From an uncultured Gammaproteobacteria bacterium (GTDB lineage Bacteria; Pseudomonadota; Gammaproteobacteria; Steroidobacterales; JBCCMA01): a DNA stretch of 64,000 bases. How positions within the stretch are numbered: the stretch's first letter is position 1; each line of letters begins with the position of its first letter. Location: the NCBI GenBank assembly GCA_964639265.1, contig CAZXCL010000003.1, positions 733 through 64,732 of the forward strand, written 5' to 3'. This document shows, piece after piece, positions 11,775 to 23,379 of this stretch. Below the pieces are notes generated by a model. That model had not been told where the DNA came from. It did not search any database and saw only the letters and a program-made list of their open reading frames with translations. A program made the position numbers and the translations under genes.

Positions 11775-12671
11775 TTAAGAATAATTGAGCTTGAATTCAT
11801 CGGGAACACCGCCTGGCCAGGTGTCTCCCCACTGGTTGTTGCCGCCGTCCACCGTAATCACTTCGCCGGTGATGAACTTGCCGCTTGGGGCGGTGACGTA
11901 GGCGCAGGCCTGAGCGATGTCGAACACGTCACCGAGTGTGCGCATGGGATTGGAATCGGCGAAGCGATGCGCAGCGCGGCCCGGATAAACGTTGAGTCCT
12001 TCGGTCGAGATGGCGCCGGGGGAAACGCAGTTCACTCGAATGCCAAGCGGTGCCCATTCGGTGGACACCGATTTGGTCAGATAGATCACGCCGGCGCGCG
12101 CGGCGCAGGTGTGGGCAACTTGCGGCATGCCACGCTGCACGTTGGCCACGATGTTGACGATGCTGCCTTGCGTATCGTCATCGCGCCAGCGGCGGGCGGC
12201 CGCCTGCATCATGTACCAGGTGCCGTTCAGATTGGTGTCGATAACGGCGTTCCAGCCTTTCACCGAGTAGTCGAGCGCGTCCTGCGGAAACTGACCGCCG
12301 GCGTTGTTGATCAGGATGTCAGCCTGACCGTGATGTTTCCACACGTGCTCCATCAGCCGCGCCACGTCATCGGGGTCGCGAATGGTCATGGCCATCGCGC
12401 CCACGTTGGCCCCGAGCAAAGACTTCATACGATCGCGGGCCGATTCGACCTTCTCTGCGCTGCGCGAGCAGATCATGACGTTGGCGCCCAGGCGAGCGTA
12501 GAGGTAGGCGATGCCCTTGCCGATGCCTGAGCCGCCGCCGGAAACGATGACCGTTTTGCCGGCAAAAAGATCGTCGCGATAGACGAGCGGGTAGTCGGCG
12601 AGTTCCTCATCGCTCATGCCCCATTCGGGGTCGCCCTCGGGCGTCACAATACTTGTGGCGTGTTTGCTCAT
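11775..12671 (-). CDS. SDR-family oxidoreductase
   Basis: Start at ATG 12671 (MSKHATS). Cofactor motif VIVSGGGSGIGKGIA. It lies 38 nt downstream of the Rieske gene on the same strand. Confidence 0.8.
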   Translation of the reverse strand: MSKHATSIVTPEGDPEWGMSDEELADYPLVYRDDLFAGKTVIVSGGGSGIGKGIAYLYARLGANVMICSRSAEKVESARDRMKSLLGANVGAMAMTIRDPDDVARLMEHVWKHHGQADILINNAGGQFPQDALDYSVKGWNAVIDTNLNGTWYMMQAAARRWRDDDTQGSIVNIVANVQRGMPQVAHTCAARAGVIYLTKSVSTEWAPLGIRVNCVSPGAISTEGLNVYPGRAAHRFADSNPMRTLGDVFDIAQACAYVTAPSGKFITGEVITVDGGNNQWGDTWPGGVPDEFKLNYS

Positions 12672-12831: not shown

Positions 12832-13743
12832 ATGAAGTCATTGATTCTGCATCATTTTGATGCATCTCCGTTTGCCGAGAAGATACGGGTGGCGCTGGGC
12901 ATGAAGAACCTGCCGTGGCATTCCGTGCAGATTCCGATGGTGATGCCCAAGCCCGAGTTGATGCCGCTGACCGGTGGCTACCGAAAAACGCCTGTTCTGC
13001 AAATCGGGGCAGAGGTCTACTGTGATACGAGCCTGATTCTCGAGGAGCTCGAGGCCCGTTTTCCAACGCCACCACTCATCGACCAACACAACGTCGGCAC
13101 CGCCGCCGCTCTGGCCCGCTGGTCCGACACGAGTTTTTTTGAGCCCGGCGCGGGTCTGTCGATGGGCCTGAACCAGGGCTTGCCCGACGATATCCTCAGC
13201 GATCGCAAGGACTTCTTCAATTTCATGGATTTCGATCGTCTGAGCGATGATATCCCGCATCTCTACGACCAGTTTCTGGCGCAGGTTGCGCGGGTTGAGG
13301 ATCAATTGTCGGACGGTCGCCTGTTCTGGCGAGGTCTGGACCCGGCGGTTGAGGACATTCTCGCCTACTTCCCAATCTGGATGGCGCGTGCAAACGTACC
13401 GGGGATGGAAGAGCGTCTGGCATCGTTCGCCCGTGTCGGCGCCTGGTCACAGCGCATTGCTGATTTCGGGCATGGCACGCCCAATCCGCTGACGGCCGCG
13501 TCGGCACTAGCGCTGGCCCGAGACGAGGAACCTGAAGCAGGCCACGGAGTTACGGCCACCTGTTCCGAGCTGGCAATGGGCGATGCGGTGACGGTCACCC
13601 CCACCGACTACGGTGCGGTACCCGTGGCTGGCGAGCTTCTCACGCTCAATCACCGCCGTATCACGATTCGTCGTCACAGCGATGAAACTGGGGTACTTAA
13701 CACCCATTTCCCCCGGAGCGGCTATCGTGTCACCCAAAGATGA
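12832..13743 (+). CDS. Glutathione S-transferase-family protein with a C-terminal extension
   Basis: GST N-terminal thioredoxin-like region (HHFDASPFAEKIRVALGMKNLPW...TPVLQIG..YCDTSLILEELE). Confidence 0.7.
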   Translation: MKSLILHHFDASPFAEKIRVALGMKNLPWHSVQIPMVMPKPELMPLTGGYRKTPVLQIGAEVYCDTSLILEELEARFPTPPLIDQHNVGTAAALARWSDTSFFEPGAGLSMGLNQGLPDDILSDRKDFFNFMDFDRLSDDIPHLYDQFLAQVARVEDQLSDGRLFWRGLDPAVEDILAYFPIWMARANVPGMEERLASFARVGAWSQRIADFGHGTPNPLTAASALALARDEEPEAGHGVTATCSELAMGDAVTVTPTDYGAVPVAGELLTLNHRRITIRRHSDETGVLNTHFPRSGYRVTQR

Positions 13744-13766
13744 CACGCAATGTGTTCGTCTTCCCT

Positions 13767-13795
13767 TTATCGTTGGTCTACACTTTTCACATAAT
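13767..13795 (+). promoter_or_regulatory. Possible sigma70-type promoter of the CHAT/MBL/patatin operon
   Basis: TTATCG, 17 nt spacer, CATAAT, in the AT-richer gap upstream of 13867. The -35 is weak. This is pattern matching only. Confidence 0.2.
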
Positions 13796-13866
13796 TTGAC
13801 GATTGTGACAGCGCGCGCATCTTGCGTGAGCGCAGGTGGACAGACCAAACGATAATAAGGATCTGC

Positions 13867-16194
13867 GTGTCCAGAAGGATCAACAGCCGCGGTGCCCGGC
13901 CAAGCGTCGGCTGGCTCTGGCGAAACCTGTTCGGGTTGATCGTGCTGCTGCAGGTGGCTTGCTCATCCCTGAGCCCACCGGATATCCCGGTGCCGGTGCT
14001 GACTGGCACATCACAGCAAGCTGCGCAGGAGACGCTGGCGACGCTGGGCCTTTCCACGCAGATCCTGCCACTCGATGAGTTGGATTTGAAACAGCGGTTT
14101 GGGCCGAGCCGTAGCGCGTGGCCGCCGCCTGACACGGTCGTCACCCAGCAACCGGCCGACGGCAGTCTTGCCGCAGGCTCGGTCGTTGTCCTGCAGGTCG
14201 CACGCTACCGTCGCATTGAGCCGCCAATGATCGTCCCCGTAGTCATTCCCGAAGGAACGATACCCGACGTCAGGGCTCTACCGCTGGATGCTGCGCAGCG
14301 CGCACTGCAGCGGGCGGATTTCGGCGTTCGTCTTCTTTCGGTGGGGCCAGACCAGTTACGTGCGCGCTTTGGCGAACGGCCGGGGCGCTGGCCGGTGCCC
14401 AACTCGGTTGTCGGGCAACGTCCGGCCGGCGGGACGATCGAAGACCTGGGCGAAACCGTGGACATCGACGTTGCCCGCTGGTCGCCGATGGATCTTGCAA
14501 CCGGGGGTGTCGCCGGGAACACGCTGGCCCGGGCCCGCCGTCAGCTTGAGGCGGCGGGCTACAGGGTTGAGGTCATCGAGCGATCGCCCGTCAATGCGCC
14601 AAACGCCAGACACGGCGACGTGCTTGCAACGCAGCTGATTGGCCGCGACAACGGGCGCAATGTCATGCAACTGACCGTCGCCAATGCCAACGGACGCAAC
14701 GTGACGCCGCCCCCGCCGCCAGACACCGACAGCGATGGGGTCCCTGATCCTGATGATGCGTGTCCACAAACTCCGGCGAATACCACGGTCGACGGGCGCG
14801 GCTGTCAGCAGGTGACAACGCCGCTCGACAGCGACGGCGATGGCGTACCCGATGACAGGGATCTGTGTCCGGACTCGCCGCCCGGAAGCTTTGGCGCTCC
14901 ACAGGGCTGCACCTTGACGCAGCGCGTTAATCGTCTGCCGGACGGTCTTTACGCCTTTAATCGCCAGACGGTCATGCAGGTTGGCCGCCCTGAACCCTAT
15001 CGCATCGTGTTGGTGCTCGATCCGCGTGGATCGGCAACCCCCGGTGACATCGAGGCGCAGGTGTTGAGCCAGCTGCCAGATGGTGATCGCCCGCCGTCGC
15101 GCGAGGTGAACGCGTTGAGTGACGAGACGGACGACTGCACTGCGCCGGTGATCTGCTTTCGTGAAAAGTACTACGAGCGCATGCGTGTGGATTTGCGCGT
15201 TGATCAAAAAGGCTGGGAAATCCGGCCGGACAATCCGGTGGCGATACGCGGTGTGGTCAGTGATCAGGTGACGCGCTGGAGCTGGACGGTGGTCCCGGCG
15301 TGCGACGGCGGCGGACTGCTCAACGGCGAGTGTCGCCCGGCGGCTCTGACGCTGGATGCCTATGCCATGTTTGACGACACAAGCTACGGACCGATCATGG
15401 TGTTCAACGAGCAGATCACCGTAGAGGTGTCTGCGGACGAACGCGTGGCGTCATTTTTTGAGCGCAACCGCACGCTGATCTTCGGCACGATTATTTTTGC
15501 CGTGTTGCTGGCGCTGGCGACGTGGTGGCTGGCGCGGCGCCGGCACAACACAGCCCGGCCTTTGCCGGAGTTCGAGGCCGTCAGCGTGCTGTTTATCGGT
15601 GCCAATCCGCGCGGCACCAGCCGCATTCGCCTGGATGAGGAGGTGCGCGGCATTGATCAGTCGATTCGTCTTGGCGAGCGACGCGATGCGTTTACTCTGC
15701 ATCAGCACTGGGCAGCCCGCGTCAGCGATCTCGACGATGCGCTCATGCGCTTTAGACCCAATATCGTTCACATCAGTGCGCACGGCACAGACCGCGGTGA
15801 ACTACTTCTCGAGGGCGGAGAGGGCGACGATGGCAAGGTCAGCGCCGCGCAGCTTGAAAAACTCTTCGCTATTCTTAGTGATGACATTCGCCTCGTTGTG
15901 CTGAACGCGTGTTTCTCCGAAGAGCAGGCGCGCCTGATCGTCAATCACGTGGACTGCGTCGTGGGGATGTCGGATGCGGTCAACGATCAGGTGGCGCAGC
16001 GTTTTGCCGAATCGTTCTACCTCGCGCTGGCCAACGGGCGCAGCGTGCAGATAGCGTTTGAGCTTGCCAGTGCCGAGGTGCAGGGCAAGGGGCAGGACGC
16101 CGTGCCGCGTCTGCTGGCGCTGCGCAGTGATCCCAGGCGTGTGGAGTTTGCACGACGATCGCCGGCACGCCATATCGAAGGAGTGAATATCTGA
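13867..16194 (+). CDS. Transmembrane receptor-like protein: signal/anchor, 3 PASTA-like repeats, TSP3 repeats, a periplasmic domain, a TM helix and a cytoplasmic CHAT (caspase-like) module
   Basis: I prefer GTG 13867, 5 nt after AAGGA, over the track's TTG at 13822. The N-terminus is RNLFGLIVLLQVACSS. PASTA-like units end in TVVTQQPADGSLAAGSVVVLQVA, SVVGQRPAGGTIEDLGETVDIDVA and GDVLATQ..MQLTVA. TSP3 repeats are DTDSDGVPDPDDACP and DSDGDGVPDDRDLCP. The TM helix is LIFGTIIFAVLLALATWWLARRR (about 15474-15542). The CHAT dyad context is NIVHISAHG (His 15781-15783) and LVVLNACFS (Cys 15910-15912). Confidence 0.7.
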   Translation: MSRRINSRGARPSVGWLWRNLFGLIVLLQVACSSLSPPDIPVPVLTGTSQQAAQETLATLGLSTQILPLDELDLKQRFGPSRSAWPPPDTVVTQQPADGSLAAGSVVVLQVARYRRIEPPMIVPVVIPEGTIPDVRALPLDAAQRALQRADFGVRLLSVGPDQLRARFGERPGRWPVPNSVVGQRPAGGTIEDLGETVDIDVARWSPMDLATGGVAGNTLARARRQLEAAGYRVEVIERSPVNAPNARHGDVLATQLIGRDNGRNVMQLTVANANGRNVTPPPPPDTDSDGVPDPDDACPQTPANTTVDGRGCQQVTTPLDSDGDGVPDDRDLCPDSPPGSFGAPQGCTLTQRVNRLPDGLYAFNRQTVMQVGRPEPYRIVLVLDPRGSATPGDIEAQVLSQLPDGDRPPSREVNALSDETDDCTAPVICFREKYYERMRVDLRVDQKGWEIRPDNPVAIRGVVSDQVTRWSWTVVPACDGGGLLNGECRPAALTLDAYAMFDDTSYGPIMVFNEQITVEVSADERVASFFERNRTLIFGTIIFAVLLALATWWLARRRHNTARPLPEFEAVSVLFIGANPRGTSRIRLDEEVRGIDQSIRLGERRDAFTLHQHWAARVSDLDDALMRFRPNIVHISAHGTDRGELLLEGGEGDDGKVSAAQLEKLFAILSDDIRLVVLNACFSEEQARLIVNHVDCVVGMSDAVNDQVAQRFAESFYLALANGRSVQIAFELASAEVQGKGQDAVPRLLALRSDPRRVEFARRSPARHIEGVNI

Positions 16195-18875
16195 TGGATA
16201 CGACGGACGAGATGAGCGAGGGCGAACGCGTCGCGGCCTTCCTGATGGGCAGCGGACCACGCCATCGCAGCAGTGCCCCGGAGCCGGCGCTATTGCCGCA
16301 TCTGGCGGCCTACTTGTGTCACGACTTCAGTATCGAAAAAGTCTTGCAAACCGCGCGTGATCTGGGGCTTTACGGCGGCGCGCCGCCGCCCTGGCCGGCG
16401 TTGTTCTACAGCACGCTCACGGCCGCCTGCACACGACCCGAGCTGGTGGCGCATCTGCGAGAGTTTTCCGGCATCCCCGAGATGCTTCTGCGCGTCGGCA
16501 GTCTGCCGCAGTCCCCGGCACAGGCCGACACCGCGGCGTGGCTGGAGCAATGCTGGGATGAACCCGATGCGATGGGCAGTGATTTTCCATCTTATGCGGG
16601 CGCAGCTCAGGTGCTGTGCGCTCAGCCGTCCGACATGATTGCCACCACGCTTGACGACGCGCGACTCGACCCGGCGCAGCTCGATCCGGAGTCTGTGCGC
16701 TGCTTGCTGGTAGCGATGCGCCAGATTGGTCGGGCGCCGGAGAACAGCTGGATCCGGCGGGCGCTGGATTCAGGCGCTGGCCAGCATCAGCGCTGGACGC
16801 GTCTGGCCCACGTGTTGCCGGATCTGCCCGCCGCCGAGCGCGCGCGCTATGCCGATGAACTGGCCTCGGCTGAGCTCGACGACCGCTATCCGCCGGACTA
16901 CCGGGCCATGGTTGTGTCGCGTATTGCGCCGTTCGTTTCGTCGCGCCGAGCGTTTCATTATCGAGCGCTGACTGCTGAGATGGACCCGGTGTGGGTCGAG
17001 CAGATTGACGGGCTGCTCGGTGCCGGCTGGCCAGAGACGCTCTGGGCTGACGTCATGCGCGCCCATCCCGAACACGACATGTTTCGCAACGTCGTGCGTC
17101 CTCACGAAACCACCGAAATGGCGCCGTATGAGATCGAAAATCGCTACGGCGCGGCCCAGATGGCGATGAATCCCGGTGAGCCGGCCACGCGCGGCGGTGC
17201 AGGTGAGGAAACCAGCGCGCCGCCACCGCAGCCCGTACCCGTCGATCCTGCTGCGCCGGCCACGCCCCGCGCGCTGCAGGCCAACGTGATGCTGGATGAC
17301 GATATGCAGGAGGTCAGCGCGTTTGTTGCCAATGCCCCGCACGTGGTGGATGTGTCGATCGGGCGCGGCGCCAGCGTGGTGGCGGATGTGGCGTTTGATG
17401 AAACCGTGTTTGATGAGACCGATGCAAAGTGGCTCAAGCTGCCGGTCTGGCTGCACTACGATGGCCAGACGCAGAAAGACGTTTTGCGCGTGCCGCGCGA
17501 TGCCGCTCGCAATTCCAAAGAGGTCAGCTTCAACATCCGGGCGCCGGCGACGGGTCGGGTCAAGGCGCGGCTCTACGTGATGCGACCGGGCGGCGGCTTG
17601 CTGCTGCAGAGCGCCGTCTTGCTCGGTGACGTAGTGGCCGATGCGGCCACTGCCGTGGGTCATTCGCCAGGTCTCGAACTCAATGTGGACGTGCATGCGG
17701 GCGAACTGAACGATCCGCTGTCTTCGCCCACCGGAGGCGTGGTTGATGGCAGCGAGCGCGACGGTCAGGTCATCGGTGATGACGCGATGGTCGATCTGGA
17801 TGTCTCGAGCCTGCACGGTTATCTGTCGAAGCTGGTTGTGGAAATCGAAACGGCCGCCGACCGCCGCAAGTACGATGACAAGGCCATCGACGAGGCGCTG
17901 GCCTCGCTGGCGATCGCAGGACAAGCCCTTCGCGCACGCTTTGCCGGTGCGCTTGGTCCGCTCATGGATAAACCGGTGATTCAGGTGCTCTCGCCGCGCG
18001 CCGGCGATCTGCTGCCCCTTGAGCTGGTGTACGACGGCGATCCGCTGGCCTCGGATTCCACGGTCTGCCCAAACTGGCGTGAGGCTGTGCGTGCGAACGA
18101 CTGCAGCGGCTGCCCGGCGGCCGACGGCTCGCCGCACGTATGTCCGCGCCGTTTCTGGGGTGTGCAGAAAGTCATAGAGCGGCGCAGCGCCGGCGGCGGC
18201 CAGGGTTTTCAGGTGGGAGCGCATCCCACCAGCGGCCGACCTGCGTTGCGACCGATTGCCGGGGCTGCCGTGGGTGCGTCCGGGCGCGTGGAAGAACAGG
18301 ATGTTGCCAAAGTGCGCGACAAGGTTGCCAGCGCCTTTGGTGTCGATACCCAGCAGGCGGTCGACTGGGACAGCTGGCGCGTGCTTGTAAACGATCACAC
18401 GCCCGAACTTCTGGTTGCGATGCCCCACGATCACTACATCGCCAACGAGCTGAGCTCGGCACTGATGATGGGCGAACCCGAAGACGCCGATTTCGCGCCA
18501 CCGGCCACGGCGTTGGTCTCTGGCAGCGTCCGCAAGGACGTGGTGCACACCGAAAACGCGCTGCCCGGACCCATCGTATTTCTGCTTGGCTGCAACACCT
18601 TGTTCAAGGAAGGTCAGATCGTCAGTTTCGCCGATGAGTTTCGCGACAACGGTGCAGCGCTGACCATCGCCACGATGGGCAAGCTCGTGGTCGAGCAGGC
18701 GCCCGAGGCGGCCGATGTGTTGCTGGATGTGCTCGCGCAGCGACCCGACGGCATCGATACACTCGGCCAGGTGTTGCTCAAGGCGCGGCGCGAATTACTT
18801 GCCAACGGCATGATCATGGCGTTGTTGCTGGTCGCCAACGGCGATGCGAACTGGCAACTGCCAGCCCAGGAGTAA
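16194..18875 (+). CDS. Large cytoplasmic CHAT-domain protein with an unassigned about 560-aa N-terminal region
   Basis: Its ATG overlaps the upstream TGA (16192-16196). The C-terminal third reads like CHAT: VIQVLSPRAGDLLPLELVYDG, LLVAMPHDH (His 18426-18428 or 18432-18434) and IVFLLGCNT (Cys 18591-18593). A Cys cluster C-x11-C-x2-C-x9-C lies at 18066-18143. Confidence 0.6.
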   Translation: MDTTDEMSEGERVAAFLMGSGPRHRSSAPEPALLPHLAAYLCHDFSIEKVLQTARDLGLYGGAPPPWPALFYSTLTAACTRPELVAHLREFSGIPEMLLRVGSLPQSPAQADTAAWLEQCWDEPDAMGSDFPSYAGAAQVLCAQPSDMIATTLDDARLDPAQLDPESVRCLLVAMRQIGRAPENSWIRRALDSGAGQHQRWTRLAHVLPDLPAAERARYADELASAELDDRYPPDYRAMVVSRIAPFVSSRRAFHYRALTAEMDPVWVEQIDGLLGAGWPETLWADVMRAHPEHDMFRNVVRPHETTEMAPYEIENRYGAAQMAMNPGEPATRGGAGEETSAPPPQPVPVDPAAPATPRALQANVMLDDDMQEVSAFVANAPHVVDVSIGRGASVVADVAFDETVFDETDAKWLKLPVWLHYDGQTQKDVLRVPRDAARNSKEVSFNIRAPATGRVKARLYVMRPGGGLLLQSAVLLGDVVADAATAVGHSPGLELNVDVHAGELNDPLSSPTGGVVDGSERDGQVIGDDAMVDLDVSSLHGYLSKLVVEIETAADRRKYDDKAIDEALASLAIAGQALRARFAGALGPLMDKPVIQVLSPRAGDLLPLELVYDGDPLASDSTVCPNWREAVRANDCSGCPAADGSPHVCPRRFWGVQKVIERRSAGGGQGFQVGAHPTSGRPALRPIAGAAVGASGRVEEQDVAKVRDKVASAFGVDTQQAVDWDSWRVLVNDHTPELLVAMPHDHYIANELSSALMMGEPEDADFAPPATALVSGSVRKDVVHTENALPGPIVFLLGCNTLFKEGQIVSFADEFRDNGAALTIATMGKLVVEQAPEAADVLLDVLAQRPDGIDTLGQVLLKARRELLANGMIMALLLVANGDANWQLPAQE

Positions 18876-18880
18876 AACCA

Positions 18881-19972
18881 ATGAAGATCTACCAACTTGA
18901 AATGTTGCCCGCCGCGGAGGGCGACGCGCTGCTTCTGACCTACGGTGACAGCGAACACCCGCGACATGTGCTGATCGATGGCGGTCGGCGCTCCACCTAT
19001 CCGCTCTTGCGTGAGCGCATTCTGGAAATCCCGCTAAACGAAGACGGCAAGCGCTACTTCGAGCTTCTGATTGTTTCGCACATCGATGCTGACCACATTG
19101 AGGGCATCATCGGTTTGCTCCAGGACGACGAGCTTGAGTGCGAATTCGGCGATATCTGGTTCAACGACTTTCAGCATCTCGAGCCGCTGGTTGCCGGTGA
19201 AATGCCGACGCATCTGGGTGCCAAGCAGGGCGAGTTTCTGGGTGCCCTGCTGCATCATCTGGATTTGCCCTGGAACGAGCATTTCCAGGGCGGCGCTGTC
19301 GTCATGCCGCCCGAGCCGCACCCGCTGCCGCGTATTGAGCTTGCCGATGGACTCACCCTTACGCTGGTATCACCGAGCATCGAGTCGCTGATCAAGCTGC
19401 GCAAGAAATGGAACAAGGTCATCGAGGCGGCGGGGTTTGTGCCTGGCAACCGCGAGGCCGCGCTGACGCAGTTTGGCGACAAGGCCTGGACACGGTTGTT
19501 GACCCATCTTGGCACCGATCGCAAGCGGCCGACCAACGATCACAGTGAGGCCAACGGGTCGAGTATTGGGGTGGTTGCTGAGTACGAGGGACATCGACTG
19601 CTTTTGTCGGGTGATGCCTGGCACAAAGTCCTTCATCCAGCGCTCGTTCGCTGGCGCGATGAGCACGAGCCGGATGCCGAGCGAGTAAAACTCGATGCCT
19701 TCAAGCTGCCGCATCACGGCAGCAAGAACAACATCAACGACAAGCTGATGGCCGTTATCGACTGCCCGCGCTATCTGGTCTCCACCAGCGGATCGCGGTT
19801 TCGTCATCCCGATGTGCCGGCCATCGAGACGATCATGGACCACCATCACGGCGATGAAAAACCCGAGCTGTGGTTCAACTACACTTCTAAACACAACGAC
19901 TTCTGGGCCAACGAGGCTCGCGTGGTCACCCGCTACGGCGATGACGCCGTGTTCAGGCTAAACATCGACTAG
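18881..19972 (+). CDS. MBL-fold metallo-hydrolase (ComEC-C-terminal-like)
   Basis: AGGAG lies 10 nt upstream. Motifs are HxDxDH (SHIDADHIEG, 19079-19096), a later LLLSGDAW, KLPHHGSKNN and STSGSRFRHPD. Confidence 0.75.
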   Translation: MKIYQLEMLPAAEGDALLLTYGDSEHPRHVLIDGGRRSTYPLLRERILEIPLNEDGKRYFELLIVSHIDADHIEGIIGLLQDDELECEFGDIWFNDFQHLEPLVAGEMPTHLGAKQGEFLGALLHHLDLPWNEHFQGGAVVMPPEPHPLPRIELADGLTLTLVSPSIESLIKLRKKWNKVIEAAGFVPGNREAALTQFGDKAWTRLLTHLGTDRKRPTNDHSEANGSSIGVVAEYEGHRLLLSGDAWHKVLHPALVRWRDEHEPDAERVKLDAFKLPHHGSKNNINDKLMAVIDCPRYLVSTSGSRFRHPDVPAIETIMDHHHGDEKPELWFNYTSKHNDFWANEARVVTRYGDDAVFRLNID

Positions 19973-19985
19973 AGGATCAACGGAC

Positions 19986-20993
19986 ATGACGATCAAGGTA
20001 AACGGCGAAGACAAGCGGTTGGGACTGGCGCTTTCGGGCGGCGGATTTCGGGCGGCTGCATTTCATCTGGGCGTGTTTCGCAAGCTCGAAGCGCTGGGGC
20101 TTTTGTGGAAGGTGGATCTTCTGACCTGCGTGAGCGGCGGCAGTATTGCGGGTGGCTTTCTGGCGCTCAACTGGGGCAAGGACGATGCGCTTGATCGGCT
20201 CGAGGCCTATCTCAAGACCAAATCCATTGCCGTGTCGTCCGTGCTTGGCGGCATCTTCAACCCGTTTGAGACGCGGCTCGAAAGGCTGGCTGCCACGTAT
20301 GACAAGCATCTGTTCCATGACGCCAGGCTCGAGGATCTGAGCGGCGGGCCGCGGATTTATTTCAACGCGACCAACCTCGCCACGGGCAACATGTTTTTCT
20401 TTGTGGCCGGCGAGAACAAACCCACCGAGCTGGGCGAATGGCAGCTTGGCCAGAACGCAGGCGGCACCTTCCCGCTGAGTCATGCCGTAGCAGCCTCATC
20501 AGCGTTCCCGCCGGTGTTTCCACCGTTGCGCATCGATCAGGATCAGTTTGATGGGGACGTGGACTTCGTCACGCTGACTGACGGCGGTGTGTACGACAAC
20601 CTCGGCGTTAATCCGGTGTTTCGAAAACGCAACGCGCTGGATTTTGTGATCGTCAGCGATGCGGGCAAGCCGTTTGCCATTGATGAGACGCCGACGGAAA
20701 AAGGCGCCATCGTGCTCAAGGAGGCGCTCGGTATCCTCATGGAGCAGGTGCGCGGGCTGCAGTTTCAGCGACTGGCGCTGTCGCATGAGGCGGGCCACGG
20801 TCCCAAGCCTTTGTGGTTTTCAATCAACAGCGTCGAGGGCGAGCAGCAGCCGGGTGATGCCACCTTTGCCTCCAGCGTCGGCACAAATCTCAAAAAGCTC
20901 AATGACGCGGAGATGGAGGTGCTGGGCCGCCACGGCGGTGCCCTGCTTGAGCATCGCATGCGCGAATATGCGCCGGAGATGCTTGGCGGCTGA
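19986..20993 (+). CDS. Patatin-like phospholipase
   Basis: GAGGA RBS. Oxyanion motif LSGGGFRAAAF (20037-20051), nucleophile elbow CVSGGS (Ser 20133-20135) and catalytic Asp motif LTDGGVYDNLG (Asp 20580-20582). Confidence 0.85.
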   Translation: MTIKVNGEDKRLGLALSGGGFRAAAFHLGVFRKLEALGLLWKVDLLTCVSGGSIAGGFLALNWGKDDALDRLEAYLKTKSIAVSSVLGGIFNPFETRLERLAATYDKHLFHDARLEDLSGGPRIYFNATNLATGNMFFFVAGENKPTELGEWQLGQNAGGTFPLSHAVAASSAFPPVFPPLRIDQDQFDGDVDFVTLTDGGVYDNLGVNPVFRKRNALDFVIVSDAGKPFAIDETPTEKGAIVLKEALGILMEQVRGLQFQRLALSHEAGHGPKPLWFSINSVEGEQQPGDATFASSVGTNLKKLNDAEMEVLGRHGGALLEHRMREYAPEMLGG

Positions 20994-21320
20994 TCAGCCT
21001 GATGATTCGACGCTTACTTCGACAACGCCCTCGTCGCTGACCCGGGTCGGATAGACCGACAGATCGCCGCGCGCGAGCTGGCCGTTGGGCTTGCCCGTGC
21101 GCACGTCAAACATGGCGCCGTGCAGCGGACAGATCAGTCGAAAACGCCGCAGGCGCGCACCTTCGAACGTGGCTTTGGCGTGCGTGCACTCATTGGAGAC
21201 GGCGTGAAATTCCTCGCCGATCCTGCACAGTACAATCGGGGTGCCCGCCGCTGTGGTGCACAAAACACCGGACTCGGGCATTTCGTTGGCGGGAATAACA
21301 GGCTCAAAAGTGGCGCTCAC
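20994..21320 (-). CDS. Rieske [2Fe-2S] ferredoxin component of an oxygenase system
   Basis: 108 aa with CTHAKATF...CPLHGAMFD. GTG start behind AAGGA. Its stop abuts the patatin gene stop with zero intergenic bases. Confidence 0.85.
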   Translation of the reverse strand: MSATFEPVIPANEMPESGVLCTTAAGTPIVLCRIGEEFHAVSNECTHAKATFEGARLRRFRLICPLHGAMFDVRTGKPNGQLARGDLSVYPTRVSDEGVVEVSVESSG

Positions 21321-21335
21321 GGGGCATCCTTAAAA

Positions 21336-21355
21336 AAAACAGTCATGATTGTTTT
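21336..21355. promoter_or_regulatory. Palindromic operator candidate, site 2 of 3 (AAAACAGTCATGATTGTTTT)
   Basis: 19 of 20 matches to the ideal palindrome. It lies 16 nt upstream of the ferredoxin start (-) and 57 nt upstream of the ABM start (+). Confidence 0.6.
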
Positions 21356-21371
21356 ATTCTCAAAAACGCGA

Positions 21372-21380
21372 TGCTACCAT
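21372..21380 (+). promoter_or_regulatory. Extended -10-like element TGCTACCAT
   Basis: It lies 16 nt downstream of operator site 2 and 32 nt upstream of GTG 21412. An identical 9-mer sits in the same relative position at 38919-38927. Confidence 0.4.
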
Positions 21381-21411
21381 CTTTCGCAGCGTGTAATTCG
21401 AGGAGTGTGCT

Positions 21412-21705
21412 GTGCTGACGTTTCTTTCAAGAATGACCGTCAAGGCGGAAAAAGAAGCCGAATATCTGGATCTGGTGGCCAAGCTAACCGAAGCGGTGCG
21501 CGCCAACGAACCCGATACGCTGCAATATCAGTTTTATAAGCTGCGCGATCAGCCGCTGGGCTACGCTGTCTTTGAGTCGTTTACCAGCGAAGAGGCGGAA
21601 AAAGCGCATCTGGATACGCCGCATTTTCATAAATACGCGCCGCCGATGATCGAGTGTCTCGATGGCGAGTACGTACGCGAATATCTCGACGATCTGCCCG
21701 GCTGA
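21412..21705 (+). CDS. ABM-domain (antibiotic-biosynthesis-monooxygenase-like) protein
   Basis: 97 aa with GAGGAG RBS and GTG start. The sequence YQFYKLRDQPLGYAVFESFTSEEAEKAHLDTPHF is a typical ABM/YgiN-like pattern. Confidence 0.7.
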   Translation: MLTFLSRMTVKAEKEAEYLDLVAKLTEAVRANEPDTLQYQFYKLRDQPLGYAVFESFTSEEAEKAHLDTPHFHKYAPPMIECLDGEYVREYLDDLPG

Positions 21706-21711
21706 CTGGTC

Positions 21712-23379
21712 GTGCATTCTCCGGGCGACGATTTAAGAACCAGCCGCATTCGCGCTACCACTCTGGGCGACTTGTTGTTGACGGCGGCCGACTCGGTGCC
21801 CGAACACACGGCGGTCGTGTTTCCCGAGCAGCGTCTGACCTATGCGCAGCTCACCGAGGCATCGCTCAAGGTCGCACGCAGCCTGCATGCGCTGGGCGTG
21901 GGGCGTGGTGATCACGTTGGCCTGCTGCTGCCGACCTGCGCGGAGTTTCTGGAAGCCATGTTTGGCGCGAGCCTGCTTGGCGCCGTGGTGGTGCCGATCA
22001 ATGCGCGCTTTCGTCCAATGGAAATTGCCTACGTAACCGGCAACGCTGATCTCAAGGCCATCGTCACAACCAACAAGTTTGTGGACGTGGTCGACTTTTG
22101 CGGTCGGCTGCACGAAGCGCTGCCGGGCTTGAAAGAAGCACGCGATGCAACCTCGCTGTCGCTGCCCGATTTTCCGCAGCTCAACGCGGTTGTGTCGCTG
22201 TCCGGCGACGCAGTGGCCGGCCTCGTGGATCGCCCTGCGTTTGATGCGCTGGCCGCGAGCATCGATGAAGACGAGGTGCATCTGCGGCGACTGCAAACCC
22301 GTCTGGGATCCACTGCCCTGATTCTTTATACCTCGGGCACCACCTCGAACCCCAAGGGCTGCATGATCAGTCACGAGTCGATGGTGCGCAGTTCCATCGC
22401 GCTCGGTCGTCGGTACGAAGTGGGACCCAAAGACAGCTTCTGGTCGCCACTGCCGCTGTTTCACATCGCGGCGATTCTGCCACTGGTGTCTATTTTTGAT
22501 CAGGGCGGCACGTATATTACGGCCGAACATTTCAACGCCGGCGAGGCGCTGAAGATGCTCGAGCAGGAGAAGGCCACGCTGACGTATCCGTGCTTCTGGA
22601 CGATCATGGGCGATCTGGTGCAACACCCGGATTTTGCCAGCACGGACCTGAGCAATATCCGTCTGATGAACGCCAACTTTGCGGTTCAGCCGGCCGCGGT
22701 GGGCGAGACAATGGAGTCAACGCTGCCCGACATTTGCTATGTCGGCACCTTTGGTATGACGGAGACCGCCGGCACCGTGACAACCGGGCGCATAGGCGAT
22801 AGCAAAACCCATCGCTATACGCGCCTGGGTACGCCCTTGCCGGGTCTTGAGGTCCGCATTCTCAATCCCGAAACCGGCGAGGAAGCGGCGACCGGCGAGA
22901 AGGGTGAATGTCTGATTCGCGGTTACAGCACGTTCGATCGCTACTACAAAGCGCCGGAGAAAACCGCCGAAGCCCTGGACGACGAGGGCTGGTTCCACTC
23001 AGGCGACATCTGCTCGATCGATGACGACGGTCAGCTTATGTTCCACGGCCGACTGAAAGACATGCTGAAAGTTGGCGGCGAAAACGTGGCCGCGGCGGAA
23101 ATTGAATCGTGTCTGCAGCAGCACGAGGCCGTGACACTGGCGCAGGTGGTCGGTGTGCCCGATCCGCGCTACCAGGAGGTTGCCGCGGCGTTTATCCAGT
23201 TCAAGGAAGGCATGAGCGCCGATGAGCAAGCCCTCATCGCCCACTGCAAGGAGCGCATGGCCAGCTTCAAAGTGCCGCGCTATGTGCGCACGGTCACTGA
23301 ATGGCCCATGTCGTCCACCAAGATTCAGAAATTCCGTCTTGCCGACCAGCTCATCGAAGAGCTGGGTCTTGGTGAGTGA
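21712..23379 (+). CDS. AMP-dependent acyl-CoA synthetase/ligase
   Basis: AMP-binding signature LYTSGTTSNPKGCMISH, then GMTET, GWFHSGD and LKDMLKVGGENV. Confidence 0.9.
   Translation: MHSPGDDLRTSRIRATTLGDLLLTAADSVPEHTAVVFPEQRLTYAQLTEASLKVARSLHALGVGRGDHVGLLLPTCAEFLEAMFGASLLGAVVVPINARFRPMEIAYVTGNADLKAIVTTNKFVDVVDFCGRLHEALPGLKEARDATSLSLPDFPQLNAVVSLSGDAVAGLVDRPAFDALAASIDEDEVHLRRLQTRLGSTALILYTSGTTSNPKGCMISHESMVRSSIALGRRYEVGPKDSFWSPLPLFHIAAILPLVSIFDQGGTYITAEHFNAGEALKMLEQEKATLTYPCFWTIMGDLVQHPDFASTDLSNIRLMNANFAVQPAAVGETMESTLPDICYVGTFGMTETAGTVTTGRIGDSKTHRYTRLGTPLPGLEVRILNPETGEEAATGEKGECLIRGYSTFDRYYKAPEKTAEALDDEGWFHSGDICSIDDDGQLMFHGRLKDMLKVGGENVAAAEIESCLQQHEAVTLAQVVGVPDPRYQEVAAAFIQFKEGMSADEQALIAHCKERMASFKVPRYVRTVTEWPMSSTKIQKFRLADQLIEELGLGE

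Follow-up and report, generated by a model that had tools for sequence, protein, structure and literature searches.

A compact block of four plus-strand genes (A, B, C, and D), present in a 64,000-nucleotide (nt) stretch of DNA from an uncultured Gammaproteobacteria bacterium (contig CAZXCL010000003.1, positions 733 to 64,732; hereafter the window), raises the question of what the product of gene B does. An earlier interpretation, made from the letters of the window without database searches (the sequence-only reading), took B to be a possible relay protease or substrate, perhaps acted on by the membrane CHAT receptor encoded by gene A. However, that reading missed the invariant partner of B, the CanC-like metallo-β-lactamase (MBL)-fold protein encoded by gene C. 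Because this MBL gene is the invariant partner and a CanC homolog, B is better read as a nuclease activator: probably, though far from certainly, B is the nuclease-activating cysteine protease of a Canu-like protease/pro-nuclease module for cell suicide of the defense type. In such a system, a protease would unlock a gated nuclease as in Canu, Hachiman, AVAST, and Lamassu, but the protease would come from a very large and previously unnamed family of CHAT-like enzymes with a probable zinc knuckle.

The MBL-fold partner of B

Gated MBL pro-nucleases become active once two of their insertion loops have been cleaved by a partner protease (Tuck et al., Science 2025, PMC12799240). Such protease/gated-MBL-nuclease pairs are found in Hachiman (HamM), AVAST type 1 (Avs1a), Lamassu, and DRT (PMC12799240). 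In canu loci, which contain TPR and Ig-like domains and vary in their organization, this part is taken by a caspase-family protease whose gene lies immediately 5' of the MBL gene, and the caspase complex CanAB turns KaeCanC into a potent nuclease in vitro (PMC12799240).

The product of gene C is homologous to KaeCanC over its full length (36% identity, E 3e-66) and is 28% identical to a second, unlabelled MBL nuclease in the sequence table of PMC12799240. Among the PADLOC models it matches LmuA (1e-62), Avs1a (3.5e-44), and RTasMBL (2e-42), and it also matches NCBIfam Avs1a (2.6e-60, under the equivalog cut-off). C has the metal motifs HIDADH (residue 67) and PHHGS (277), of which HIDADH and PHH are shared with CanC; the MBL proteins of the B loci keep HIDADH and PHH(G/C)S. 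Two candidate gating-loop motifs, HLGA (111-114) and HLGTD (209-213), are also present, and the Leu-Gly of loop 1 (G113) aligns with the mutationally defined CanC cut site, G104.

In the window and in all of the loci compared with it (L001-L020; 17 distinct loci), an MBL gene lies directly 3' of the gene for the B core, often overlapping it; at L018 and L019, the MBL call is based on gene position and size only, with a faint or no Pfam match. These loci belong to metagenome-assembled genomes (MAGs) of Gammaproteobacteria, Acidimicrobiales/Acidimicrobiia, and Acidobacteriota, and they cover close homologs of B as well as variants in which the core is joined with CHAT, a STAND NTPase, a C14 caspase, or a subtilase. 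At L020 (4664-9903), full-length B and an MBL domain form a natural fusion of 1300 amino acids (P0042), and a patatin gene overlaps its start. Adjacency to or fusion with an MBL protein is obligate among these B-family loci. In addition, no other protease was found beside the core at L004 (a locus syntenic with the window), at L011/L012 (L011 being of the STAND variant), or at L020, and none was found at L014 and L016 in a screen confined to the hidden Markov models (HMMs) of this analysis. Since the MBL pairing persists at loci that lack another protease, the core is the sole candidate there, if the nuclease needs a protease.

The B-C pair resembles Canu in that a gene for a caspase-fold protease is followed directly by an MBL nuclease gene and in that Ig-like and helical-repeat domains occur in loci of variable organization. 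However, CanA is a C14/MALT1-like protein of 389 amino acids with a C-terminal Ig domain, whereas B is CHAT/separase-like, with its Ig-like domain before the protease. In addition, B has a putative metal knuckle with four ligands, which has not been reported for CanA, and unlike Canu the B-C pair comes with a lipase and often also with a membrane CHAT/PASTA receptor.

In the mechanism proposed, the variable N-terminal module (here a helical domain of 320 residues) would form the input or regulatory part of B. Where it is present, the membrane CHAT receptor A, with PASTA outside and CHAT inside, would supply an extra upstream input and may activate B by proteolysis; in other members a fused second protease may likewise activate the core, which would give a two-step proteolytic cascade. 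Activated B, using the putative catalytic pair His745/Cys800, would then cleave both insertion loops of C, in or close to their conserved Leu-Gly motifs, so that the gated proenzyme would become a DNase that cuts indiscriminately. Protein D, the patatin-like phospholipase, is likely a second effector, which would be directed to the membrane.

Several observations weigh against this reading. Compared with KaeCanA by BLASTP, B shows no similarity (best E 4.4), and hhalign of the B family against KaeCanB gives a probability of 0.2%. MALT1 is not among the top 50 Foldseek matches of B, and no gene of the A-B-C-D operon has a CanB-like size or position. Because B lacks sequence similarity to CanA and CanB, the analogy with Canu rests on the nuclease partner and on the fold class. 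The second insertion of C contains a conserved LG(D/T), but it does not align column for column with CanC G189. In many members of the family, another genuine protease is fused to the core or encoded beside it, and this protease could be what actually activates the nuclease. For B itself, the segments around the dyad (745-777 and 802-810) are poorly modeled, the Foldseek E-values are modest (~3e-3), and the confidence of the profile comparison with CHAT, described below, is restricted to the region of the Cys. Finally, the window locus lies between metabolic genes in conserved synteny and not in a defense island.

Protease-gated MBL nucleases are a recurrent executioner in bacterial immunity, shown only in 2025, and the caspase-linked Canu branch rests on a single characterized system. 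The B locus points to a second, much larger family of caspase-fold partners (at least 1,577 representatives). Since its core is missed by current domain libraries, these systems are invisible to standard annotation and defense-finding pipelines. The invariant dyad, the probable zinc site, the natural protease-nuclease fusions, and the fusions with CHAT, caspase, subtilase, and STAND modules provide handles for experiments.

Architecture and conservation of B

An AlphaFold2 (AF2) model of B, built on 20 homologs (mean predicted local distance difference test score, pLDDT, of 76.7), contains an all-α N-terminal domain, a disordered Pro/Ala-rich linker (residues 320-355), an Ig-like β-sandwich, a second disordered segment (502-529), a helical hairpin, and an α/β domain that resembles proteases. 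When modeled alone, residues 1-320 reach a pLDDT of 89.5 and a predicted template modeling score (pTM) of 0.90. This arrangement agrees with the sequence-only reading, which had described a helical, Pro/Ala-rich N-terminus of about 330 amino acids and a β-rich middle. It had also suggested that both regions be compared with known structures. In such a comparison, the sandwich matches the CARDB domain 3idu and Ig-like domains of dextranases (Foldseek probability 1.0); the N-terminal domain has no match in the PDB with E <0.1, only generic ARM/HEAT/PPR-like solenoids. A Foldseek search of B against viral structures returned Ig-like sandwiches only. Sec63/Brr2, at the top of the full-length Foldseek list, has a root-mean-square deviation (rmsd) >20 Å and was rejected as homology, reflecting a helical-plus-sandwich arrangement. 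Likewise, matches of DUF6415 and CATASP to the helical hairpin (E ~0.05-0.09) were judged to be noise.

A word-indexed search found 20 close homologs of B (42-75% identical), all unnamed. In a profile search of 1.84 billion cluster representatives (clusters at 50% identity), 1,577 representatives match at E ≤1e-3 and 930 at E ≤1e-30. Most of these matches span profile positions ~350-906 and so cover the core, made up of sandwich, hairpin, and protease-like domain. The N-termini differ. A subset of the family carries the B-type helical domain and other members carry HEAT repeats; N-terminal to the core there can also be a canonical CHAT domain (P0026, residues 84-368), a C14 caspase (P0138), a pro-kumamolisin/subtilase (sedolisin/subtilase) domain (P0076), or a Zn-ribbon with a NACHT-type STAND NTPase (P0095). 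Because different members have different modules in place of the N-terminal domain, an exchangeable sensor or regulator is a better fit than a prodomain conserved throughout. Of the roles suggested earlier, "a sensor, an adaptor or an inhibitory prodomain", the first is thus favored over the last. Ten family members have source names that are absent or read "hypothetical protein", and literature searches found no description of the family. The B core defines a large, previously unnamed family that is missed by current domain libraries.

An alignment of 166 family sequences was used to follow conservation. His745 is present in 162/162 and Cys800 in 162/163, in the contexts LLVAMPH745 and IVFLLGC800, such that each residue follows a hydrophobic strand. 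Further invariant or near-invariant residues are Phe654-Trp655, Glu662, Trp725, Trp728, Gly576, and Gly883. The segment between the catalytic residues (745-800; 18426-18593) contains a conserved S-A-L-M-x-G-E-P motif at a pLDDT <50, and it may become ordered only upon activation or substrate binding. Two conserved motifs, W-x-D-V-(F/M)-R-A-H-P-E and R-P-H-E-T-T, lie at the end of the N-terminal domain, just before the linker (residues 285-309; 17046-17120). At the border of linker and core, Arg359 (17268-17270), part of an R-x-L-Q-A motif, is present in 131/132 sequences and is kept even with different N-terminal modules; processing might take place there, or the residue might anchor the structure.

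At the level of single domains, the best structural matches of the C-terminal domain are all clan CD proteases (Foldseek probability 0.95-1.0): separase 5fby (probability 1.0, 218 columns, rmsd 4.8 Å), gingipain RgpB 4ief (1.0), Csx29 8eex_B (0.95), and also human separase. Whole-length alignments of B to 8eex_B, 9hma, and 7nj1 have a TMq of ~0.21-0.24. A profile of residues 590-893 (164 sequences) was compared by hhalign with eight canonical CHAT domains from the window and related loci, yielding a probability of 65% (E 6e-5, 76 columns) with Cys800 on the CHAT nucleophile; control comparisons of the same query with MBL, patatin, and Tle1 alignments yielded 0.1-0.2%. In a permissive alignment, whose confidence is low outside the Cys region, the LPWE, His, and Cys of CHAT are collinear with LPLE607-610, His745, and Cys800, and the C-terminal GD motif of B is also collinear.

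However, Pfam CHAT (PF12770) has no match on the core in any of 67 members (20 close homologs at an E limit of 1 and 47 distant members at 0.01). Pfam CHAT matches are present in 7 of the 47 distant members, and the only one located, that of P0026, lies N-terminal to the core; all seven are most likely N-terminal fusions of this kind. Peptidase_C25 matches a few members weakly. No family is recognized in B by Pfam, NCBIfam, or PADLOC, and searches of PDB chain sequences with the B sequence and the B profile returned nothing. Since the core is unseen by Pfam CHAT, its assignment rests on Foldseek, hhalign, the collinear motifs, and the weak Peptidase_C25 matches. On the basis of the hhalign result together with the fold matches, the C-terminal domain is accepted as a divergent CHAT/separase-like caspase fold, not filed as a member of Pfam CHAT. 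The sequence-only reading had seen the CHAT hallmarks in order, a claim that would fall without a caspase fold or a conserved dyad. A predicted caspase fold and a conserved dyad are present, and the LPxE, His, and Cys are collinear in the low-confidence alignment, but the Pfam CHAT model is blind to this domain.

B is like separase, Csx29 (the TPR-CHAT of Craspase), and SAVED-CHAT in its match to the caspase-hemoglobinase fold of clan CD. Separase and Csx29 also have the layout of B, in which the N-terminal region is helical and the protease lies at the C-terminus. Unlike in canonical CHAT, the residue after the catalytic His in the B family is Asp, Asn, Thr, Gln, or His instead of Gly, the Cys lies in G-C-x-T instead of A-C, and an insertion, the putative zinc knuckle, follows the first strand.

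This knuckle, with Cys625, Cys637, Cys640, and Cys650, lies between the LPLE strand and the VIERR strand and falls in a gap of CHAT in the permissive, low-confidence alignment. Candidate ligands were counted between the invariant first and last Cys in the 162 sequences that cover the insert. Cys625 is kept in 161/161 and Cys650 in 162/162. Four Cys are present in 128 sequences, mostly as C-x11-C-x2-3-C-x8-16-C, and five Cys in 5; the remaining 29 have three Cys, all with a His 2-6 residues after the second Cys (CCHC). Thus, every one of the 162 has at least four candidate ligands. Exchange of Cys for His at a ligand position is a signature of metal sites and is not expected of disulfides. Consequently, the swap at the third ligand in 29 sequences favors zinc, and to judge from the alignment the cluster is most likely a structural zinc site; a disulfide-only or redox-switch reading is downgraded for the same reason. 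The four Cys had been placed exactly by the sequence-only reading and their conservation, on which its proposal depended, is confirmed, whereas of its two options, zinc or redox, only the first has gained. In caspases, the loop after the first strand is L1, which lines the substrate groove. By analogy, the knuckle may sit beside the groove of B.

Receptor A and other explanations of the block

Gene A encodes extracytoplasmic PASTA and thrombospondin type-3 repeats, a single transmembrane (TM) helix (residues 557-571), and a short cytoplasmic domain that is a canonical CHAT, with SAHG at 652 and LNAC at 694 (Pfam: CHAT 7.8e-12, PASTA 1.1e-11, TSP_3 2e-4). A canonical CHAT with a PASTA-bearing partner is present at six of eight close loci (the window, L001, L002, L006, L007, and L008). 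At L006, L007, and L008, CHAT(-CHASE2) and PASTA genes lie within the operon, 3' of the MBL gene; at L001 and L002, CHAT-CHASE2 and FecR/PASTA genes are close by on the opposite strand. In the window, PASTA, the TM helix, and CHAT are joined in one chain, whereas other loci have these parts in two proteins, a membrane CHAT-CHASE2 protein and a FecR/PASTA protein. Literature searches found no description of CHAT/CHASE2/FecR/PASTA operons. The CHAT/PASTA set is absent from L004 and L005, and gene A is also absent from several other loci. Since A is missing from L004 and other loci, it appears to be an accessory input, outside the minimal unit, and it is best read as an optional upstream input to B.

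The earlier idea of a two-protease cascade therefore survives in part: a link to CHAT recurs, both at the six close loci and in the N-terminal CHAT and C14 fusions, but the invariant partner of B is the MBL protein and not A. As in the SAVED-CHAT to PCaspase cascade of type III-B CRISPR (Steens et al., doi 10.1101/2023.06.23.546230), two clan CD proteases, A and B, are encoded together, such that activation of one by the other is conceivable. However, the A-B system lacks a SAVED sensor, its upstream protease is a membrane receptor with PASTA repeats, and its constant downstream element is an MBL nuclease rather than a C14 PCaspase. The relay analogy drawn by the sequence-only reading is thus conceptual only. 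The PADLOC models chat and SAVED_CHAT cover the CHAT part of A only (SAVED_CHAT model positions 321-452), B contains no SAVED domain and has no TPR match, and no CRISPR or cyclic-nucleotide signaling genes are present among the called genes of the operon and of the neighborhoods examined (CRISPR repeats were not searched for). The CAD/ICAD pair of animal apoptosis, in which a caspase-family protease unleashes a latent DNase, is an analogy only, since CAD is unrelated to MBL nucleases and is freed when its separate inhibitor is cut, without the loss of any gating loops.

It is possible, though rather unlikely, that B cores are mid-tier "initiator" proteases of a multi-tier death pathway, leading from an envelope sensor and a CHAT or fused module through the core to a gated DNase and a phospholipase. 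In that pathway, the core would be activated, by proteolysis or oligomerization, through either a PASTA/CHASE2 sensor coupled to a canonical CHAT or a CHAT, caspase, subtilase, or STAND module fused to it. If true, this would be a bacterial counterpart of the route from death receptor to initiator caspase to caspase-activated DNase, triggered from the envelope rather than the cytoplasm; the link to membrane proteins of the peptidoglycan-sensor type in several genomes raises the possibility of envelope-triggered cascades that end in destruction of DNA and membrane. Alternatively, the canonical protease (A, or the fused CHAT, C14, or subtilase) could be the key enzyme, with the B core as its substrate or as a scaffold comparable to separase's pseudo-protease domain. 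Such a pseudo-protease scaffold would present or hold the nuclease and lipase, and cleavage of B, for example in the 320-355 linker or by Arg359, would free the effectors. The translational coupling of A and B, the CHAT(-CHASE2) and PASTA genes beside B-MBL at the six loci, the proteases that precede the core in the fusion proteins P0026, P0138, and P0076, and the disordered linker with a near-invariant Arg at the core boundary all fit this arrangement. It is nevertheless unlikely, since a dyad with a single exception among the aligned sequences is unexpected of a pseudo-enzyme and a second protease was not found at L004, L011/L012, or L020, nor with the HMMs used at L014 and L016. It is also compatible in part with the nuclease-activator reading: A may activate B, and B then C.

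A role outside immunity, in which B-C-D, with or without A, is carried on the chromosome, passed on vertically, and used in regulated autolysis, development, or the response to envelope stress, is quite improbable. Here, cell-wall signals would trigger a protease-controlled DNase and phospholipase through the PASTA/CHASE2 sensors. The synteny of window and L004 despite only 50% identity of their B proteins, the catabolic flanking genes (neither defense nor mobile), the extracytoplasmic sensor character of PASTA and CHASE2, and the environmental MAGs that make up many of the hosts are consistent with such a role. However, the family of the MBL partner is known so far from phage-defense systems (Avs1, Lamassu, DRT, Hachiman, and Canu), some loci adjoin integrase, NERD/helicase, or other caspase genes, and the distribution across phyla is patchy, suggesting horizontal transfer. 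Finally, the caspase look could be misleading, such that the C-terminal domain is a non-proteolytic Cys/His/Zn enzyme or binding module whose linkage to MBL stems from other chemistry, for example a common metabolic or nucleic-acid processing role. A core that no curated protease model matches, the empty profile search of PDB sequences, and the weak Foldseek E-values would be expected in that case. Yet this explanation is very improbable when set against best domain-level matches that are exclusively clan CD proteases, an hhalign score far over the controls that puts Cys800 on the CHAT nucleophile, catalytic residues that both follow hydrophobic strands, as in clan CD, and a partner homologous to nucleases proven to be gated by proteases.

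Gene order in the window and at related loci

The coordinates of the four genes, of the parts of B, and of the CHAT/PASTA sets are collected in the table. The TGA stop codon of A (16192-16194) and the ATG of B (16194-16196) share one base in a TGATG junction, with GGAG ~10 nt 5' of the B start codon. This junction agrees with the translational coupling of B to the receptor gene proposed by the sequence-only reading. The intergenic gaps are 5 nt between B and C and 13 nt between C and D. A scan of 13500-21800 for promoters and terminators found nothing exceeding the expectation from shuffled sequence.

Table. Coordinates of the genes of the block, the parts of protein B, and the CHAT/PASTA sets (positions are those of the window unless another locus is named)
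Feature	Residues of B	Position	Strand	Remarks
Gene A		13822..16194	+	Receptor-like membrane protein with PASTA, TSP_3, TM, and CHAT; true start codon uncertain
Gene B		16194..18875	+	893 amino acids; gene under study
Gene C		18881..19972	+	MBL-fold protein; homolog of CanC/Avs1a/LmuA-type pro-nucleases
Gene D		19986..20993	+	Patatin-like phospholipase (Pfam Patatin 1.9e-21)
N-terminal domain of B	1-320	16194..17153	+	All-α; common to a subset of the family only
Ig-like β-sandwich of B	356-501	17259..17696	+	AF2 strands 360-501; first element of the family core
Helical hairpin of B	540-583	17811..17942	+	Precedes protease-like domain; holds invariant Gly576
α/β domain of B	590-893	17961..18872	+	LPLE 607-610; His745 (18426-18428); Cys800 (18591-18593)
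Metal knuckle of B	625-650	18066..18143	+	Cys625, Cys637, Cys640, Cys650; candidate four-ligand site
CHAT/PASTA set, window		13822-16194	+	Compared set
CHAT/PASTA set, L001		13798-17716		Compared set
CHAT/PASTA set, L002		14618-19532		Compared set
CHAT/PASTA set, L006		8002-11876		Compared set
CHAT/PASTA set, L008		5187-9100		Compared set

The window (12832-23379) and L004 (8966-17232) have a common gene order, GST, B, MBL, patatin, Rieske (minus strand), ABM, and CoA ligase. At L004, 123 bp separate GST from B and gene A is missing; because the synteny is otherwise kept, the block looks vertically inherited, with A gained or lost. A lipase adjoins the B-MBL pair at most loci. It is a patatin in the window, L002, L004, L013, L014, and L020 (and ~3 kb upstream at L019) and a Tle1-like lipase at L005, L006, and L008.

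Further clan CD proteases are present around the core-MBL pair at L018 (1760-13351), L001 (1138-5260), and L005 (6196-7224). They include C14 caspases, a DUF4384 protein, a separate CHAT, and a C14-BACON-FGE-sulfatase protein, which suggests multi-protease networks at these loci. At L002 (13790-14606) and L005 (13919-14733), the MBL gene is followed by two small genes (~155-158 and 108 amino acids; no Pfam match) that are not found in the window. At L009, a CHAT-core variant in an Acidimicrobiales MAG, a GIY-YIG-like gene (12057-12407; 116 amino acids, weak Pfam match) lies directly after the MBL gene.

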